Source of the DNA: Eledone cirrhosa
Lineage: Eukaryota
Direction of reading: 5' to 3'
DNA: 64,000 nt
Assembly: GCA_964016885.1 (NCBI GenBank)
Contig: OZ024741.1
Coordinates: 285,820,001-285,884,000, forward strand
Positions 5,641 to 48,161 of this stretch are shown in pieces. The position numbers and the translations under genes were made by a program. The notes beneath the pieces were generated by a model, which made no database searches, was not told the origin of the DNA, and worked only from the letters and a program-made list of their open reading frames with translations. Position 1 is the stretch's first letter, and each line of letters opens with the position of its first letter.

Positions 5641-5840
5641 ATGTCTCCAGCCCTTATAGTAAGTCTGGGCTAGATGTTTTATTATTATTATTATTACAGT
5701 TGCATTTATCTTGCTTTATGTTCATACGAGTTATCACCAAGTCACAACCAGTGACCTCAAGAGACAACAAGGTCCGCCATGTTCAAGAAAGAACATACAT
5801 ATTCACACATGCATCTTTAGTGTTTAGACTTGTGATGTAC

Positions 5841-6848
5841 TTATATTGACAGAATCTTCCTTAGTATATGAGCAGTTCCCATTAGTACTATCTTTTGTAT
5901 TTCTCCTATACGCGGGTTTCCTGGGATTTGCGATAAGTAATCATTAGACCCCTTAGGTATCATTCCCAGAGCGCCTACAACCACCGGTATTGTTTTAGTT
6001 CTCAATTTCCACATTTTTCCAATTTCTATCTCCAGGTCCTTATACTTGCTCAATTTTTCAAATGTTTTTATAGATACATTCTTGTCTATTGGAACAGACA
6101 TATCAATTAGCAGGCATACCCTCTTTTGAAAGTCCTTCAATATTATATCAGGTCTATTTGCATCTATTTTTCGGTCTGTTTGGATGCTAAAGTTCCACAA
6201 GATTGAGATGTGATCTTTTTCAAGTATGGGAGGTGGTTGATGCTCCCACCAATTCTTTTGATGGGGCAGGTCAAAATGCTTACACATTATCCAATGTATG
6301 TATTGTGCAGCTCTGTCATGCCTGTTTAGGTATTCGGTTGGAGCTATAGGACTGCACATTGAAATTATATGGTCAATGGTCTCTGGTTGTTTTTTGCATA
6401 CACGGCATAATGGGCTGCACCCATTTTTTATTATGTTGGCTTGGTAATTTTTTGTTGGCAGACACTGATCTTGTGCCGATATAATCAGTCCTTCAGTCTC
6501 CGATTTCAGTCCAGAGGATGCCAACCACTGATGGGTTAAAGTTTTGTCAACATCAGGATTGTTAGCTGGCTCTGGGTATTTTCCATACAGAGGCTTTTCT
6601 TGCCATTTCTTAGCCAGTTTCTGTAGCAGGTCTTTCTTTGCAGTTACTTTTACCTGCTTTGCTTTTTCTGTGTTTTCCATTTCAGCAGTAAATGGGACTT
6701 CTGAAATTTGTAGTCCATTACTGTATCTTTGTGCATCTTTTGTGATGGAATATGATCTTTTGATGCTTTCGTGTTTCAAAACGAGTTTGATCATCCAATC
6801 ATGTGATTCCCTTAGATATGTAGATAATCCAATTGTTGCAGTTTTCAA
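5841..6848 (-). pseudogene. C-terminal part of the RLE-LINE ORF: CCHC zinc finger + restriction-like endonuclease
   Basis: CRVCKKQPETIDHIISMC, RHD, NRPDII..LIDMSVP..KLSKYKDL, PVVVGALG. Confidence 0.9.
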
Positions 6849-6888
6849 CGCAATGTCTAACTGGATTAAGCCACGTCCTCCTTCTTTC

Positions 6889-8427
6889 CTATATTCTATC
6901 TATATCTGCCTTAGGGTGATGCATTCTGTGCATGGTTAAGAATTTTCGAATTTTTGTATCGAGCCTACGGATCTCAATGCTTGACCAGTTGATGACATTG
7001 TAACTGTAGGTTACTACTGGTATGGTAAGCGTCTTTATGGCATCGATCCTATTCCTTGCATTCAATTCCGTTCTTAAGATTGCTCTTACTCTGCCGTAAC
7101 ATTCCTTCCTCATCCTTTCCCTCATTGTCGAGTGCTTGATTCCGTCTCCTTCACAAACACCTAGATATGTGTAAGTTTTTTCTTGATCAAGTTCTCTTAT
7201 CACGTTCCCCCGATCAAGATTAATGTCTGAACTCTTCAGCAGCTTTCCTCTGGTGAACGTTGCTTTGGCGCATTTATCTAGTCCAAACTCCATTTTAATG
7301 TCATCACTGAACTGCTTCACAGTGGATAATAGCCCTTGCAATTGTTCATCATTTTTTGCAAATAGTTTCAGGTCATCCATGTAGAACAGGTGATTAATGT
7401 TTTTGTCATAGACTTTATATCCATGTTTTGTTTCATTGAGCATTTTACTTAATGGTATAAGTGCGATGCAGAATAAAAGCGGTGATAAAGAGTCACCCTG
7501 AAAAATTCCACAATTAATATTAACTTCTCCAGCTTCCAGTGATTTTGTTTCACTATTCAAAAGGAGTGTCATTTTCCATGTCTTCATACTGAATGACAAA
7601 AACCTCCTGACAAGGGGGGATATTTTGAAAATCTCTAAACATTTTTCAATCCAACTGTGTGGCAAACTATCGAATGCTTTTTTATAATCTATCCAAGCAA
7701 TCGATAGATTTTTGTGTCTATTATGACAATCTTCCAGTATCATTTTGTTAACCAGAAGCTGGTCCTTACAGCCATATGAGCCTCGTTTACACCCTTTCTG
7801 CTCAATGGGAAATAGGTCATTTGTTATCAGGTGGTCATATGTGTATTCAGCTAGGACTGATGTTAAAATTTTATACATTGTGGTCAAGCAAGTTATCGGT
7901 CTGTAATTTTTGGGATTGTTTGTCTCATCATTCTTCGGAAGCAGAAATGTAATGCCGTTAACTAGCCATGATGGTATCTTTTCTGGCTCCTTAACTATTT
8001 CATTGTAAAGTTGGGCTAACAGCTCATGAGACTCTGTGAAGGCATTTATCCAAAAGTTTTGTATTTTGTCTTTTCCTGGGGATTTCCATTTGCTGGTTTT
8101 TCTTAGAGCCAAGCGCAACTGTTCAACTGTTATATTTTCCCATGTTTGTTCCTCAAGGTAAGCTGTATCTTTCATTTGTCTGTCTATCCATGGGGCATGT
8201 ATGTTATGAACTTTTTCTTCGGCCCAGATCTTTTCCCAGAATTCTTGCACTTCCTCCTTGGGTGGTATTGATTTAGCAGTTATTGTTGACTTACCAATTT
8301 TTCTGTAGAAGTTTCTTTGGTTGTTTTTGAACATATTATTGTCCTTATAGAATCTAGATCGTTTTTCAAAGCGCCTTATACGAGCAGCTTTGGCCGACAC
8401 TTTTTGCTTGATTATTTCTATCAGCAT
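6889..8427 (-). pseudogene. Reverse transcriptase domain of the RLE-LINE
   Basis: KSPGKD, YRPITCL, EQKG, WIDYKKAFDS, GIFQGDSLSPLLF, HLFYMDDLKL, YTYLG. Confidence 0.95.
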
Positions 8428-8531
8428 GTCTATGTCACATGTTGATTTTATACTGTACTTTTTTTTTCAATTTTCTAAGTTTAGTTTGTTTAACATGTTC
8501 ACCTACTTTATAGTTTGTTAAAATTTCTATG

Positions 8532-9485
8532 TCAGATCGGAGAAGGTTTATTTGGCGATTGATGTTCTCTTGCCAAGTAGATTTCTTGTGGGAATTTCCT
8601 TTGTTTTTTCATCTTCACTCCACATAAGTGAGTGGTGACTTTAGCCGATGCATAATAGAGATGATTTAAATCAGTAATGTTTAGTTTGTTTGTGATGATA
8701 ATGTTTTTGAGAATTATGTTAGTCTTGAGTATTATCTTTTGGTTCTGTTTGGAGTTCTGGATCTTAGGGAGGGTGTCTCGTTGCCCCATGTCAGATTCTT
8801 TCATTTTCATCCATTCGATCATAATTTCATCCTTCAAGTTGGCAAGTTCATTCTCATTCATTTCTTTATCATTTACGATCTCATAATTTTCATTTGGAGT
8901 TTCATCCTGAGCATGCACTCCCTCCACTTTTTCGATCCTTTCTTTAATTTGTTCTGTTGCCAGTGATTCCGCCCCAACCCTGGGATTCGAAGTGTTACAG
9001 TTTACCTCGTTTTCACTGACACATGTTTCATTTTCCCTTCGCTGACTTTGTGCTAATAGCTTGATCTGATCAATTTCTATATCAGTTAGTAACTTTTTTC
9101 TTACAATATTTCTTCGTATATTGGCTAGTTTGTTACTGTCAATATAGCCTCTGTTTTCTGGATGTTTCTTTTTCCAGTTGATATATGTCTGTTCTGTATT
9201 CGATGTATTTGATGGGTAGTACATGGCAGTGTAGAAAGCCTCAAGGACTTCTTTATTATCTTCCCTTGACCATTTTTCTCTCTTTTTCTTTGGATTTCTT
9301 GGTGGTGAGCATGGAGGACCAACAGTAGGAGTATTCCGGTTATGGGACGTCTCCAGCTCCGAAGTGATGGGAAGGTTTGAACCATTAGCTGATTTTTCGA
9401 CCCAAGTCTGGTTCCTCTCTGAGAGACGCGGCCCTTTTTTACCCGGGTGACGGCCGATCCGGTATGAGATTTTATCATTAGACAT
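8532..9485 (-). pseudogene. N-terminal part of the RLE-LINE ORF (Myb-like DNA-binding region)
   Basis: KKKREKWSREDNKEVLEAFY..NKLANIRRNI..LTDIEI is homologous to KRMKWTREEYKEVIYAYY..NKLANVRRYI..LSDTEL in ORF 17891..18469. Confidence 0.8.
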
Positions 9486-10634
9486 TTACTTTATTTTGTC
9501 GCGTTTTATCCTTTTCCGCCAAGGGGTAATCATTTCGTGTTACCACTTCTAGAACGAGTGTCAACCAAGACTAGAGGGGTCGTTCTCCCCTAGAGACACG
9601 GCTATTCCCCGCCGGCCGCCATCCCGGTATTTCTTGGTCACGGGGTTTTCTTTTTGTTGTTTTTTTAAATTGTTATTATCATGAGTGGTTCCTTAATGTG
9701 AGCATTGCGTGGCTTAAGAATGAAATTATTAATAATTGTCTCCACTCCAGGCACAAGGCTAGCAATCACCCAGTGCATTACAATAATATAATATACTTTT
9801 TGTTGGCTGTTATTGTTGTTGGCTATGTCGGTGGTGGTGCCGGGGCTTTTTATATTGTTGGTGAGGAAGGGGTGAGCCAGCAGTCCCATAGTTGTTGATG
9901 TTGACGTTTGGCCGATGGCCAGGTCACTAAGTCAATCTATTTATATCTTTTGCTAGCCTCTCCCTTGTCTAGTGATACCGCCACCTTCCCCTTTCTCTCT
10001 CAAGTTAACAGGGGAATAGTGGTGGTAGCATTGAAGGAGTGGTGGCGGCGACGATGGGATAGTGGTAGCAATGATGGATGGGGTGGGGTGGCGGCAGCGG
10101 TGGCGTTGTGGTTACTGATATGTAGTATCTATGAGTTTGTGTTCGTATGTTTAATATATATTTTTATTATATTTTGTGTTGACATATTCCCGTAAAATTG
10201 GAATTAAACATTTTTTTTAAATTTGAGACAATAATAATAGTAATTATTATTATTATTATGCTGTTGAAATTGCCGTTATCTGGCTGTTATATTTAGTGTG
10301 ATGGGATAGGTGGTGTATCAAGTTTCTGGTGTTGGTGAAATTGCTGTTATTTGGCTGTTCTATATAGTGTAGACAGAGGGTGTTTTTTCCCCATTTATAA
10401 CCATTTTCTTTTTTTGAATACAAAATATATAATACAAAATTGAGTATTTGAGCGATACAACAATATAATATGGATCCGAAACTTTATGGGACCTGATTCG
10501 GTGGTTTATGCAACATTTGTACTAAGAATTGTTATTTCACAAATGATTTAAATATGTTAAAAATCAAAAACTTACGGGAGCGATTTCATGACCTTCTACC
10601 ACCTCGTGCCTCTTCTTCCCTTATTATTATTATT

Positions 10635-17749: not shown

Positions 17750-20700
17750 TGATCTCAGTGCCAGCCAGCAAATGCACTACCCTAAGAGCGGGGCAACTTT
17801 CCACGTACCCCCAATACCAAAGCGTAACGCAAGCATGTACTGCGAGATAAACAAATAAAAATTAATACACAATACCAAATCGCTTTTCCTATGGTTAATC
17901 AGGAAGCGCGTTCCTCAGGAAGGTGCCAGCCTGAGATCGAAAAGTCCTCCTGTGGCACAAACTCTTCTCCAATTATGAACCTGGATGGTCACTTGATCGG
18001 AGATTGCCCCGACACGAGCCCTCCAGATCCACCATCCAAACCACCTCAAAAAGAAAAACTTAAAAGGATGAAATGGACCCGAGAAGAGTATAAAGAAGTA
18101 ATATATGCATATTACTATGCATTAGGTAAGCCATCACAAGACAGACACACTTTAAACTCCTACAAAATTTGGAAAACTCGGAATCAAGCTAGCAGACGTG
18201 ATATGGAGGGAAACAAGTTGGCAAATGTAAGGAGGTATATCTTCAGAAATAATAGACTCTCAGACACTGAACTAACTGTGATCAAGCAGGCTGCGGAGAA
18301 TGAGATAAATATAAATGATCAAAGAACTGAAGAATCTCCTGGAGATAGTAATCAGTCACAAGTCTTTACTGAAAGACATCCATCTGACCAAATCACAAAT
18401 AGTTTTGTAGAAATGAGAAGCCCTATTGAACCCGCTGAAAATAGCCAGGAGAGGGACTTAGAACAGTAATTGAAAACCAAACATCTGTTGAAGAACACAG
18501 GGAGACTATGAAGGAATTAAAGCAAAACATACTGTATAAATGATAGAGACCCACTTCAAAAACTCCCAATTACAATCTAAAATAGAAAACAAATAATGAT
18601 TGGTAATTCTGTGACAAAAGAAATCATAGAAGAACTAGAACCTGATCTTACCGAGTTAAATGAAATCATTTATGCATCTGCTAGAGTAATTGAAACAAGT
18701 TGTTTACCACAAAAAAAAAAGTCGAACCTTCGAGGTAAACCAATTTGAAGGAGTAGAATCGAAAGGGAGATTGACGTAATGGGGGGAGAAATATCTTTAT
18801 TGAGTGAGTTAACCGCTGGAAATGATATAAGATCCAAGAAGGTAAGAAAGCTAAAGAGAAAATATGGACTATCTTCTAGAGAAGCAATAGTTTCAACAAA
18901 ATAATCTCTGAAACAAAAAGTCCAAGTAAAAGCCCAACGAGTTCGTAGATTCGAGAAACGAAACACCTTCTACAGGCACGATAAGTTGTTCTCATCCAAT
19001 GCCAAGTCATTTTATAGAGAAGTAGAGGAGACAAAATAATTATTGAAGACCCCCACCCCACCCCCGTCCATAGAAGAAGTCGAAAACCTCTGGAGTAAGA
19101 TTTTGAAAAAACCTACACAAATTTAGAAGAACAAGCGTGGGAAGATATCTCTATAGCGGACTTAAGGGCAGCACTCAATACATCTCATAAATGGAAATCT
19201 CCTGGTAGAGACAGGGTGCAAATTTCTGGCTTTCCTCACTGCCGTACACTCACAATATACCTGATTGGATAGCAAGTGGCATTACCTACCTTCTACCAAA
19301 GTACAACGAAACCAAAGATCCAAAAACCTACGGCCCATAACCTGCTTGTCCACCACTTATAAACTATTAACCTCTATTCTCATGGAAAAAGCATGCGTGT
19401 TTTTGGAGGAGAATAATCTTTTACCCATTGAACAAAAAGGGTGCCGACGAGGTTCATATGGTTGCAAAGATCAACTTTCGATTAATTGTATGATCCTTGA
19501 GAACTCTCAAAATAAACACAGAAATCTCAATTCTGCATGAATCGATTATGAAAAAAGCCTTTGACAGCATACCACACTCATGGATTCTGAAATCACTGGA
19601 CATCTTCAAAATCTCACCTCTGATCTCAAACTTCCTGTAGCACAATATGTCATTATGGAACACAAATCTCCAATTGTCTCATTCTACTGGGGCACTGTGC
19701 TCTAGGAATATAAACATCAACTATGGTATATTCCAGGGTGACTCACTTTCACCCTTGCTTTTCTGCATAGCTTTAATATCCCTTACATCCGAACTTAATA
19801 GAACAGGGTACGGTTATAGAATTGGCAACAAAAAAATAAGCCACCTATTTTATATGGATGATTTGAAACTATATTGCAAAGATAGTGACGAACTGGAAGG
19901 CCTTTTGCGGACAGTATAAACGTTTAGCGATGACATCAGGATGGAGTTTGGACTTGACAAGTGTGCAAAAGCCACTTTCAAGAAGGGGAAGCTTGTCAAC
20001 TCAGTTGAATTGGATGCTGAAACAATCATAAAGGAACTTGAGCAGGAACAAACCTATAAATACTTAGGGATTAATGAGGGCTCTGGCGTACAGCATGCAA
20101 GTATGAAAGAGAGCATAAGGAAAGAATGTTACAGGAGAGTACGTGCAGTTCTGAGGTCAGAACTAAACGTTCGTAACAAGGTGCTAGCCATAAATTCCTT
20201 GGCAGTCTCAGTTGTCACTTATAGCTTCGGTGTGTTGAACTGGAATATGAGTGAAATCAAAAGAATCGACACCAAAGTCCGTAAGCTACTGACCTGTAAT
20301 AGGATGCACCACCCAAAAGCAGATGTGGATCGTCTTTACCTTCCTAGAACTCAAGGAGGCCGTGGCCTGATCCAATTTCAACTTGCTTACAAGACCACCA
20401 TCATTGGACTGGCCAAATACCTTGAAACAACTAGCGAGTGTATGTTGAAACTTGTTGAAAAGAATAAGAGAAGGAAGAAGCTTCATTCTATCTTGAAGGA
20501 GAGCAAAATGTATGCGACTGATCTCATGCTTGATACCCAGGCTGGACAGACTAAAGAAACTGTTGCAACTGATGCTGCTAGGCACATAAAATCACTTGCA
20601 AAAGCAAAAGGGCAAGGACAATTAGCATCAAATTGGGAGCAGAAACCTCTGCATGGCAAATATGTGACCCGTAGCAAACAAGCTGATATTGACCAAAAGC

Positions 20701-21600
20701 ACACCCATCAGTGGCTATGTAGTTCAGGGCTAAAGGCGGAGAGTGAAGGCTTCAGCTTAGCAGCCCAATATCAAAGCTTATTGACTCGTAATTACCAGGC
20801 CAATGTGATGAGAAACAGAATAAACCCAAAGTGCCGAATCTGCAATGCTGAGGTTGAAACAGTGGATCACTTAGTCTCTGGATGTAAAATTTTAGCACCA
20901 GTAGAATACAAATATTGACATCACAGTGTTGGCCAATATCTACACTGGGTAATATGTCGGCATTACAAAATCAAAGCTGAAGACAAGTGGTACAATCATC
21001 ACCCTGAGGCTGTAACTGAAGGAGAACAAGTAACAATTCTCCGGGACTTTCCTGTACATACTGACAGGACAATAAAAGCAAATAGACCTGACATCATTAT
21101 AAAAGATCAACATAACAAGGTCTGTTTATTGATAGATATGAGCATCCCATGTGATCACAATATCGCGGCAAAAGAATTTGACAAGCTACGAAAATATAAA
21201 GATCTACTTAGTGAAATTGAGAAAATGTGTCACCTCAGGGCCGTTACAATACCAGTGATTGTGGGAGGAGTGGGAATGATCAAGAAAGGAACAAAACAAT
21301 ATTTGCGAATGATTCCTGGTTTACCTTCTCTGCACGAGGTGCAAAAAATTGTTTTGACTGGTACTGCACACGTATTGAGAAGAGCACTATCTCTGTAAGA
21401 TTGATATCCCTCCTTGTCTTTACATATGCATATGCACATGTGTATATATGTATACTGTTTTGTTTTTAATTATAATCAATGTGCTGTATTAACTGGCTTA
21501 CCAATGCACACTGTGAATTTATTTGCCCTAGGTGTCAGGAAGACACTTGGCATATATCTCAGAAACAATAATGAAAGAAAATAAAAACAATAATAATAAT
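17750..21600 (+). mobile_element. Full-length but degenerate Dong/R4-like RLE non-LTR retrotransposon
   Basis: Myb-like N-terminus (17891-18469); RT fragments (RPITCL, GIFQGDSLSPLLF, YMDD, YKYLG); CRICNAEVETVDHLVSGC; RLE (RPD, IDMSIP, KYKDL); ends in (TAA)n. Multiple stops and frameshifts. Confidence 0.92.
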
Positions 21601-22865: not shown

Positions 22866-25800
22866 ATAATAATGATTTCATTTATTGGTCACAAGGGCCG
22901 ACATATAGGGGACAATACAAGAGTCTGGGACAGTGGGGTTTTACAGAAAAATCGAGTAAACAATATGAATAACAATAACAAAATAACAAGAAAAATACAA
23001 CAAGAAAAATTCCCCATTGGGGGGATGACCACCCAGGGTTCGCTCAGGTACCCCACCAATCCTGAACGACCCGACGCTTTGAGAGCACCCTGGAAGGGCA
23101 CCCCTCTTCTCCTCAAATTACCCACCTACAGCCACATGACCAGAGTAGCCCCACTCACACGGGCCATTCTCGCCACATTAACCCACCGTTCAGCAAATGT
23201 ACTGGGGGGCAGCACTTCTCTCTCCACCCTCACCTTCCTTTCCAAGTGAAACTTGAAAAGGTTGATGAGGGATTGGCTGAAGAGAAAAGTGTCTATCTTA
23301 AGTCCTTTCAACCTCGTCCACCATACAACCTCTTTCGCTACTGCCACCAGACAGGGGAAAATTGCCTGTCCTTCCTGGCCAAAAGAAGGCGGCGGGTCGA
23401 TCTTCACTATGGACTCTGCCGATAGCCGGATCCGTTCTACACGCGACAACAGCTCTTCGACATAACTCCACAAGCCAGTAATGCACGGACACTGATTCCA
23501 GATGCCAGTCACCCAGTCTCAGTCTCTTCTTCACCCAGGACTGCAGCGCAGTCAAAAACGAGCTGCGGAAAGGCCTGTCTGACAAACGGCGACCACACCT
23601 GTTCACCGTTTAGGCAAAATATCTGGAGATGCCGCAGCCTCAGCGCGTGTCTGCGCATCATTAGCCACGGCATGCCCAGCCCTCAACGTAGAGGGTGCTG
23701 GCAGGAGATGGACTGCCTCACCAGCGGAACCTGAAGAGGAGCCGCTCCAAGATGGCGAGGCGCGAACGGGGGCAAGGGACGACGGTCAGACAATAGTAGA
23801 TGACGGACACGATGTACGCGTTCGCCAGCTCCGTCCGACCTTTCAGTGATAGCTTCCTCCCAGCCCATTTCTGGGTGAGACTGGCTACCCTGCCCGTTAC
23901 CTCGTCCCAATTCTTATTCACCTGGAGCTCTGGCCCGAACCAAACCCCGAGCAACTTTACTGGTCCATCCGTCGAGCGCCTAACGATGCTGTTGGACGGC
24001 ATGGACTTGCCTCTCCAGGTACCGAGTTGCAACCCCACCGACTTTTCAGGGTTAAGTTTTGCTCCCGTCAACCTTTCATATTCCTCCAATAAGTTGCCGA
24101 CCACCTCGATTTCTGAGGTGTCCAACACCATCACGGTGATGTCGTCCGCATAAGCCGACACAGCCTTTCCCAGTCCCGGTTCGAGCGGGATGTTCTGCAA
24201 CATCTCCAGCTTCCGCAGTAAAGGCTCGAGAGTCAATACGTACAGAAGGGAGGAGAGAGGGCACCCTTGACGGACCGATCGGGACACCTGAAACGGTTCC
24301 GAGAGGTGGCCATTAATTTTGACCACCGAGCAGGTGCCGCTGTGCATTGCAGCGATCCAGCTTCTGAAGACGGGACTGAAGCCAGCCGCCTTGAGGACAG
24401 CCTCCAGGTACCGATGATCGACTCTTTCGAATGCTTTCGATTGATCTAAATTGATCAGAACCCCACTGAAGCCAGGTTTACACCCTACCCTCTCTATGAT
24501 GTATCGCTTTAGGTGGAGGTTGTCGTGTATGAACCTAGTTGATATTGCGCAAGTTTGGGCCTCCCCTACCAGATTTTCGACACCATTACGGTTATGTCGT
24601 CGGCATAGGCTGACGCTGCTTTCCGCAGTCCTGATTCGATCGGGATGCCCTGCAACAGCTCCAATTTCCGCAGTAAGGGCTCGAGAGTCAGTACATACAG
24701 AATGGAGGAGAGAGGGCATCCCTGACGGATGGAACGCATGATTTGGAATGGCTCTGATAGGTAGCCATTCACCTTGACTGCCGAGCAGATGCTGGTGTGC
24801 ATGGCAGCGATCCAGCCTCTGAAGACGAGACCGAAGCCGACCGCCTTGAGAACTGCTTTCAAGTATTGATGGTCGACCCTATTAAATGCCTTAGACTGAT
24901 CTAAATTGATCAGAGCCCCACCAAAGCCAGGTTTACACCCTCTCTATGATGTATCGCATGAGGTGGAGGATGCCGTGTATGGACCTGGTCGGGATTGCAC
25001 ACGTTTGGGGGTCCCCAACCAAATCCCCGAAGACAAGCGCCAACATCTTCGCTAACACCCTGGCCAAAATCTTAAACTCTGTGTTGAGCAGAGTTATGTG
25101 CCTGAAATTGTCTAATGTGTCCTTCTTGTCCTCGTCTTTCCTTATCAGCGTCACTACGCCCCGGCTCATAGAACTGGGAATACTCCCGTTCTGCTGCCAG
25201 TTTCAGTAGAGAGCTTCGAGGCGATTGGAGACCAAGTCTGGCATATTTACGTAAAGCTCGTAGGGCAGACCATCCAAACCGGGTGACTTGTGCCTCATGC
25301 AGCCGACAAGGGAATCCTGAATCTCGGCTGAAGTAATCGGCCTTTCGCAGCGCCCAGCGTTGGCCGTCCAGAGTTGCGGCAAGCCATCGAGGTAGGGACT
25401 GAAGTCCGCCACCGTCTCTGACCCACCACTTCCCCCCGAACAACCGAGCAAAATGTTGGCAAAAGGCCTCACACATCCGCTTGGAATTGCTCACCTCGTG
25501 TCCGTATCGGTCCGTCAAAGACCGAAGCGTGGTTTTATTATCATGCTGTGCCTCTGCCACGCCGGCCCATCGAACAGCTTTGGTTCCCTCGTTTCTCAGG
25601 GCACGCACCCTAGCTCTGACAATGCAACCTTCGTGTTTCGCATAGAAGAAATGGTCTAATGCCATTCTCGCCGTTAGCACGTTAGTTGCAAAGCCACTAC
25701 CAATAGCCTCGTCTAACTTATCTACCAACTCTCGACATTCGCACCAGAAACAAATCTTCCGGCTCGCGAAATCTGCTCGATTTAAAAGTGTTCCCCTCTT

Positions 25801-26712
25801 TTTGTATATTTTCACTTCGTACTACGAGGGCCATCAGTTCCTTGTTGGTCCTCCTGACGAGCACAAAGTTTTGTATGTTTTGTTGGTGTGATTTTATCTG
25901 TTTGCGTGGCTGTGGTTGTGATGGTTTTGGTGGTGTTGTTTGGGTTGTCTGTGTTTGTTGTGAGTGCGGTGTCTGTGGTTTCATATGTTTGTGTGTGTAT
26001 TTGTTCTTACGTCTGTTTAGGTGGTTTGCGTTTGGGGGATTCTGGTGATGCTGATGGGGGTGTTGATGTTGGTGTTATTGGAGAGATGTTTGCGTGAGTG
26101 GTGTCTGCATTTTTTATTGTGGGTGATTTTGTGCTTTGTTGAGTTTTTTTTTCCCTTTTTGTGTTTCCTTTTTTGTATTTTGGGGGATTTGGGTTTTCCC
26201 TCCTCTTCACTACTGGTAGATGAGGGGTCTGTGTCTGTAAGTGTGTCTGTGTGTTTATGTTTTTATTGATGTGTGTATTTTGGGGGGAGGGGGAATTTGA
26301 CAACTTTCCTCGTTTCCCCCTGGGTGGTCAATGTTGGTGGTGGTCTTTCTATTGCTGTTGTTGGTGTGGTTTTGCCGGTATGGTGTTAGTTGTGGCCCTC
26401 ACCCCGGCGTCGGGAGCAGAGGAGCTCTTCTACCCCTTGCATCTTTCAGCAGTTGAGGGCAGTAGGCTCGCAAATGGGTGTTTTTCCCCACAAACAAAAC
26501 ATTGCGGCCTTTTGCCCTCGGGCATAATATGAATGACCGTCCCATTCTGAAGGCGGATGTGGTCCGGGATTGTCTTCACATTCTCGGACCTGATCTTGAG
26601 AAGTATCTCCAGGTCAACCCCGAACCAGTCCTCTCTGGCCGTTCTTGTCACTTCTATCGGGACTGTATCCGTCCCCTCCACATTCACACATCCCAGAAGC
26701 CACCACGACTAC
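22866..26712 (-). mobile_element. Tx1/L1-like LINE, rearranged (ORF1 remnant, APE deleted, RT partly duplicated, 3' UTR)
   Basis: RT motifs KSPGLDGLPYE, NLDQSKAFERVDH, VRQGCPLS, AYADDI, VKLLGVWFG. ORF1 knuckle-like RPQCFVCGEK. 3' end aataaatgaaatc(att)n. Confidence 0.9.
23718..24719 (-). pseudogene. Tx1/L1-type reverse transcriptase fragment
   Basis: DQSKAFERVDH, RQGCPLSSLLY, YADD, KLLGV, LSLKGR. Confidence 0.92.
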
Positions 26713-47700: not shown

Positions 47701-48161
47701 GGTGGCTACTAACTCGTTTTCGAGTACGGCCACTACTTTATATCCATGTAGGAGAACCCCTACCGATGCGCTGAACAAGTTTGACTTTTTAGTCCAGCCA
47801 GCGACTTGAAAACTCTGGTACAAACACTACACTTGTGACAATTATTGACACATAGTGCTGGGTCCATGGTACCATGTGACGACAAGTGCAGAGAGATCTC
47901 CAGATATAAAGCAATGCCTGTGCCGTGAAGCTTTTATAGTGAGCAAAGGCACTGCACAAAGCCAGTCCCACTCTCTTAACGAAGATGATATTTACCAAAA
48001 AGAAGAACAAGTCAACATCATTGCATACCATCAGGGTGGCAGGTGTTATATCAGAGTTTTCCTTCTCCTAGAATTCTGCCTTGACAAAGGCTAAGGGGTC
48101 ATCTCTCCCGGTGATTTGGGATGGTCATTGACTCTTAAGAGGTCCTTTGCCATATACATAT

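Follow-up and report, generated by a model that had tools for sequence, protein, structure and literature searches.

The window analysed here, a stretch of 64,000 nucleotides from Eledone cirrhosa, carries on its minus strand a LINE whose leader seems to fold, and the question that this locus raises is what such a fold is and what it could do for the element. The original prediction saw a pseudoknotted RNA at the 5′ end of an RLE-type retrotransposon and left two options for it: a self-cleaving ribozyme with an HDV-like layout that processes the 5′ end, or an RNA that serves translation initiation. The prediction holds in part: this RLE LINE does have a pseudoknotted RNA in its leader, and that RNA is real and under selection.

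The element (Table 1) has a single ORF in which an RT domain is present and an APE domain absent, and the TAA repeats that flank it are the target expected for a LINE of the R4/Dong clade. We call it R4/Dong-like from this domain content and target, not from an RT phylogeny; the CCHC and RLE-type motifs of the ORF were assigned by eye, from what we take to be their usual patterns. Its family is young and high-copy. The 21-mer at 9639-9619 has 1181 exact matches in the genome, a 1216-aa open frame is found in 20 of 150 family copies (among the matches listed), and tandem copies are spaced 4955 bp. At one locus (G000:C28:114444280-114459465, L010-L013) at least four full-length copies lie head-to-tail at this spacing, with TAA repeats at the joints, and a different R4 family is arranged in a like manner at L037. 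A fragment of another R4-like element, with RLE-type coding sequence, directly adjoins the element at 5680-5200 (minus strand). Further retroelement ORF fragments with zf-RVT and RVT_1 matches are found at 19920-21398 (plus strand) and 23718-25821 (minus strand); a search with the hold-out model described below gave no convincing match to the module near these two.

Table 1. Features of the element and of its leader (positions are those of the window).
Feature	Position	Strand	Detail
Non-LTR retrotransposon, R4/Dong-like RLE type, ~4.9 kb	5697..10620	minus	TAA repeats on both flanks
Single ORF with RT, CCHC and RLE-type motif	5841..9485	minus	window copy broken near 8530 and 6890
15-codon uORF, stop abutting the ORF AUG at 9485	9486..9533	minus	from the reading frames of the window
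Candidate small H-type pseudoknot before the ORF	9501..9524	minus	stem 9524-9521/9513-9510, loop 9519-9517 with 9503-9501
AG linker, third hairpin and tail ending ACC	9525..9550	minus	divergent hairpin GUG-GUAA-CAC, 9546-9537
Core 7-bp pseudoknot helix (first predicted as a kissing loop)	9551..9586	minus	9586-9580 with 9557-9551
Core 3-bp hairpin	9560..9571	minus	GUC/GAC; loop holds the conserved UUGG
Core stem, 4 bp, closing the 7-nt loop 9586-9580	9576..9590	minus	9590-9587/9579-9576
Candidate upstream pseudoknot	9600..9645	minus	helix 9645-9641/9611-9607, hairpin 9627-9624/9615-9612, loop 9620-9618 with 9602-9600
5′ extension of ~1 kb in the window family	9650..10620	minus	upstream of the position homologous to the relatives' 5′ ends

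All four pairings that had been proposed are found on the minus strand exactly where they had been placed. The architecture common to the families is a 4-bp stem with a 7-nt loop that pairs across a 3-bp hairpin, followed by a third hairpin. In the relatives the 4-bp stem and its 7-nt loop are followed by four linker nucleotides, the last of them A, by a 3-bp hairpin with a UUGG-type loop, and then by 2 nt, the complementary strand of 7 nt, AG, the third hairpin and a tail ending AAACC. Of the long hairpin originally drawn around the loop, the inner four pairs are kept across families and the outer CUA/UAG falls outside the common fold. The window copy is a divergent one: its 3-bp hairpin is GUC/GAC versus GCC/GGC in most relatives, and the part from the AG linker through the third hairpin to the tail fits the model poorly in its family. 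The single-sequence fold of the region is ordinary (z 0.50).

It is the comparison of sequences that supports the fold, and most strongly its 7-bp helix, which covaries both across and within families. A strict descriptor has one match in the window and none in five out of five block shuffles. Two MAFFT alignments made blind to structure, one of 13 and one of 12 sequences, show two-sided changes at 13 of 18 pairs, including six of the seven in the long helix, a result equalled by none of 500 shuffles (which ignore relatedness); slid controls are 30-49% paired versus 90% for the true register. An MI-APC analysis of 45 of 54 model-aligned matches (nine broken rows dropped, about 21 effective sequences) places four model pairs on top of all column pairs, with pair 23-32 of the 3-bp hairpin at rank 2, in an alignment that is fitted, and leans, to the model. 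A hold-out model made from 12 sequences of R4, RTE and SINE types, none from the Eledone genome, finds the window at 9523-9592 with 26.7 bits (E 2.9e-6), noise reaching at most 9.8 bits. A pattern that leaves the helix interior and its partner unfixed has 65 matches in the genome, 50 of which were scored; with 21 that have a TA microsatellite as their 5′ half set aside, at least six of the seven positions are paired in 20 of the remaining 29 copies, and five of the other nine come from a family whose linker is longer, so that the fixed offset misses them. In viral contigs the same pattern has four chance matches that pair at 2-4 positions, none reaching six.

The families in the supplement of an earlier study (PMC5786205) tell the same story by eye, with seven of seven pairs kept in 18 out of 18, including three SINEs with different helix sequences; in this tally AviRTE is counted once (one of its subfamilies has a mismatch) and three partial or divergent entries are left unscored. 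Within the window family, the pair 9584/9553 is A-U in 88, G-C in 10, G·U in two and A·C in none of the first 100 of 986 copies. Run X1 has few frequent variants, and these two changes are among them; the swap from A-U to G-C may be a single inherited event. Taken together, the comparisons show the core fold to be under RNA-level selection. The same study speculates that the conserved domain acts at the DNA level, as a promoter or enhancer, in which case pairing would be incidental. High conservation at several unpaired positions would suit such a motif, but the crossing helices carry compensatory changes that are unexpected for a DNA binding site, and we consider this explanation very improbable.

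The HDV-like layout of the original prediction depended on two further helices, P1 and P2, and neither of them finds the evolutionary support that covariation gives to the 7-bp helix. P1 (9639-9632/9570-9563) is nearly invariant in 104 copies, and is thus uninformative; 142 of 5000 shuffles produce a helix of the same strength. The last two pairs of P1 overlap the conserved 3-bp hairpin, whereas the first six involve the UUGG loop only and may be a lineage-specific contact. P2 (9600-9596/9540-9536) is at chance level (1273 of 5000 shuffles), and in 10 of 104 copies the change G9599A disrupts it with no compensation on the other strand; one of these copies has an intact 1216-aa frame (L095). 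Two other contacts were considered and rejected: pairing between the loop and upstream sequence as a family trait (equalled by 95 of 500 shuffles across 18 relatives), and an additional pseudoknot in which the UUGG loop would pair with the 3′ tail (equalled by 482 and 765 of 2000 shuffles, also with 18 relatives). No covarying partner for P2 was found in the family alignment of 45 rows, and no conserved C-N-A strand ahead of P2′ across families. That the RNA is not a canonical HDV ribozyme had been anticipated, and is confirmed by its UUGG-type loop in place of a pyrimidine-rich L3 and by the lack of a J4/2 cytosine. An HDV descriptor scan of 10800-9301, run without a positive control, gave no match; the covariance models of Rfam 15, ribozymes and IRESs included, gave no meaningful match at E up to 10, and none at E up to 1 for the motif in seven related loci.

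The structure had been placed at the 5′ end of the element, and this is wrong for the window family: the 5′ end lies some 1 kb further upstream, near 10620, and the core module is internal to the leader, some 1030 nt from the 5′ end and 38 nt ahead of the ORF. The proposed clustering of genomic 5′ ends at G9639 is not seen either. Among the first 30 of 1181 copies none begins there, 24 extend to 10400 or beyond, and two begin about 30 nt upstream of it. A second set, the first 81 copies holding 9585-9551, includes 18 without the upstream 21-mer that were retrieved to catch starts inside the structure; 17 of these run far upstream and one begins at about 9605. In all 81, no copy starts at A9586 or at the 7-bp helix, and a single one begins in the 50 nt that precede the core. 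The leader is retained to 10400 or beyond in 37 of 48 examined copies, with differing flanks, which means that the RNA from which they were copied still had about 1 kb of uncut sequence in front of the structure. More than any other observation, this speaks against efficient self-cleavage in the window family.

A ribozyme descended from HDV that cleaves itself in an atypical or conditional way therefore seems improbable, although there are points in its favour. The purine-led 7-bp helix around a 3-bp hairpin, with another hairpin after it, mirrors P1, P3 and P4 of HDV; HDV-like ribozymes exist at the 5′ end of Dong, R4 and RTE elements (PMC3774820); and 9650-9625 matches the 5′ terminus of the relatives. 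Against it stand the absence of starts at G9639 and A9586, the retained leaders, the lack of a covarying P2, a pyrimidine-rich L3, a J4/2 C and any Rfam ribozyme match, and the fact that cleavage would cost SINEs their promoter head. Since it is not at the element start, the folded RNA is likely not a self-cutting ribozyme, and of the two original options translation initiation is the one kept here, tentatively, cleavage at G9639 being left without support. The same counts bear on another function. Viral xrRNAs are known in tandem arrangement, and the module, a compact pseudoknot that is often tandem too (L036, L204), could in principle block 5′-3′ exonucleases or stabilise uncapped element RNA more generally. 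Were decay products that stalled there used as templates, many 5′ ends would be expected directly ahead of the module; only one of 81 copies has its start in the 50 nt before the core, and we judge this role to be improbable as well.

The sequence at 9650-9600 has its homologue at the extreme 5′ end of L035, L036 and L349-L373, the last being an old family of the Eledone genome whose starts cluster there; the boundary originally proposed is thus near an ancestral 5′ end that now lies behind an extension of about 1 kb. Within this extension, 9781-9724 holds a piece of 50-59 nt that is common to unrelated repeat loci. The candidate pseudoknot just upstream of the core shows one compensatory change in each of its three helices when compared with L035 (two sequences, first seen by eye, and equalled by 121 of 500 shuffles), a comparison that is only suggestive of RNA-level support. 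If these leaders hold any 5′-processing RNA, the upstream domain of L035 and L036 would be the better candidate. A leader of about 200 nt at the 5′ terminus is common to an R4 element and the old Eledone family (L036:14-210; L321:1281-1483; L349-L373). By eye it seems to fold into several hairpins enclosed by a 7-bp helix, with pairings from loop to loop, and one hairpin has many compensatory changes between L036 and the Eledone family; it has no Rfam match in L036 and is a candidate undescribed structured RNA. Just upstream of the element, 10760-10700 (minus strand) and a like flank at L091 resemble what we take to be the 3′ half of twister ribozymes of the schistosome type; at 10760-10700 no twister was matched in Rfam.

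Downstream of the core, the candidate small pseudoknot shows compensatory change in L035 and L036: its loop pairing is GCG/CGC in the window versus GCA/UGC in both, and its stem is UCUU/AAGA in L036; it is absent in L039. An IGR-IRES-like start behind this pseudoknot was rejected, as the reading frames of the window element and L036 disagree. Stop-start coupling through the uORF was rejected too, since 5 of 86 copies have lost its AUG and relatives show no such uORF; its stop changes from TAA to TAG in 6 of 86.

The module is not confined to the window family. Counting R4-like families with at least 200 nt of upstream sequence, it is present in that of the window and in three of four others, all from metagenome contigs, where it lies upstream of the ORF in L035, L036/L037 (twice) and L039 and is absent in L048; three further loci matching the N-terminal region have no usable leader. 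RTE-type elements carry it as well (L204 with three copies, L256 and L302), as do SINE-like repeats from host-like contigs, and tandem modules of two to three units are found in L036 and L204. The distance from module to ORF is about 32-150 nt in four R4 families, and in RTE elements the module stands roughly 300-450 nt before the coding region; an AUG-rich leader with structure near the start codon is found in the R4 families, not in the RTE ones. A non-autonomous repeat (48040-48112, minus strand, in the window; L111-L140) bears the module with a partly degraded 7-bp helix, its copies often 600-800 bp apart. With 27,742 genome matches to its 21-mer, this repeat shows that an intact fold is not needed for the spread of that family. 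Viral contigs contain no relative, only chance motif matches. The 74 matches in genome contigs are mostly chance in prokaryotic DNA, and we used only host-like contigs of four MAG records. Animal-type SINE or RTE repeats appear in these bacterial records (L177-L245; CAXXGD, CAXXMW, CAXXSI, CBDHHR), which suggests host contamination.

Our best explanation, still a tentative one, is that the pseudoknot is a non-catalytic, putative ribosome-docking or IRES-like module that occurs in the leaders of RTE, R4/Dong and Ingi LINEs and in SINEs derived from RTE. It would offer a docking site to the host translation machinery, be it the small ribosomal subunit or initiation factors, without any cleavage. 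In a LINE such as that of the window, ribosomes could then enter past the 13 upstream AUGs of the leader, 38 nt ahead of the ORF; in SINEs, the module might hold the transcript at ribosomes, where it could seize freshly made LINE protein, a role like that proposed for the Alu domain. The clades that carry it use different endonucleases (RLE in R4, APE in RTE; see also PMC5786205), and a common host partner would account for its presence in RTE, R4 and Ingi more readily than the three element proteins, which are distant from one another. The translation machinery is suggested by the upstream AUGs and, in four R4 families, by the short distance to the ORF, while the spacing in RTE, unlike that of an AUG-positioning IRES, counts against it. 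So do the family without a module (L048) and the 27,742-match repeat with its degraded helix.

SINE retention is explained at least as simply by binding of the element's own protein. The reverse transcriptase might bind the pseudoknot and aid RNP assembly or second-strand steps, by analogy with the 5′-RNA pseudoknot of R2 (PMC6765202). Non-coding SINEs keep the fold with compensatory changes (supplement of PMC5786205), and those mobilised by RTE repeatedly retain pieces of its 5′ UTR (PMC5786205, PMC4844689). However, a single fold would have to serve the distant proteins of RTE (APE), R4 (RLE) and Ingi, and IdioSINE2 has a different RTE 5′ fragment, so that we regard this alternative as somewhat unlikely. 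A bolder form of the ribosome-docking reading, which we hold to be unlikely, would have a catalytically retired derivative of the HDV fold reused as a portable docking module, an invertebrate or non-mammalian counterpart of the Alu domain. It would drive cap-independent translation in RTE, R4/Dong and Ingi, allow SINEs to hijack LINE protein, and belong to a larger leader with several pseudoknots that has yet to be described.

The sequence of the module was already known. Kojima 2018 (PMC5786205) describes, by sequence similarity only, a 'well-conserved domain' in the middle of RTE 5′-UTRs that is also present in Ceph-SINEs, Ingi-3_AC and R4-1_ADi, the R4 occurrence being called unexpected, and twice in AviRTE; the text of the paper's supplement gave no match to R4-1_ADi. 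Judged from its sequence, 9590-9525 of the window is a divergent copy of this domain, the sequences of our model being tied to the published domain by eye. The two are alike in sequence, as the hold-out model shows, and in lying inside the 5′ UTR; the window copy differs in its GUC/GAC hairpin and its remodelled 3′ hairpin. What is new is the structure that we read into this domain; we found none for it in Rfam 15 or in the literature searched, subscription papers and patents being outside its scope. With this reading, the conserved RTE 5′-UTR/Ceph sequence becomes a testable object, a covariation-backed pseudoknot of 70 nt with one 7-bp helix. It bears on the translation of AUG-rich LINE leaders, on the retention of LINE 5′ fragments by SINEs and on the exchange of modules between LINE clades. 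RTE-based gene-writing templates also carry their cognate 5′ UTRs (PMC13708176), where the domain would be of interest if RTE-1_MD has it.

Three other systems invite comparison. HDV-like ribozymes are found in R2, R4, Dong, RTE and L1Tc (PMC3774820, PMC4908430, PMC6765202), and those of R4, Dong and RTE cut at the 5′ junction (PMC3774820). They share with our module a pseudoknotted RNA in the 5′ region of a LINE, with a 7-bp helix enclosing a 3-bp hairpin and another hairpin after it. The window module, in contrast, is off the 5′ junction, has its 7-nt strand closed by a 4-bp stem, and is without a supported P2, an HDV-type L3 or the J4/2 cytosine. The protein-binding pseudoknot of R2 5′ RNA (PMC6765202) is a non-catalytic pseudoknot in the 5′ region of a LINE, as ours would be, but it is specific to the R2 clade, whereas ours is found across clades, and we liken them by type of fold only. 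The Alu domain (SRP9/14; 10.1101/2024.12.16.628748), finally, is a small structured RNA proposed to put SINE RNA at ribosomes. The analogy is one of function only, since sequence and fold are unrelated (no Rfam SRP match) and the window module is also carried by autonomous LINEs.
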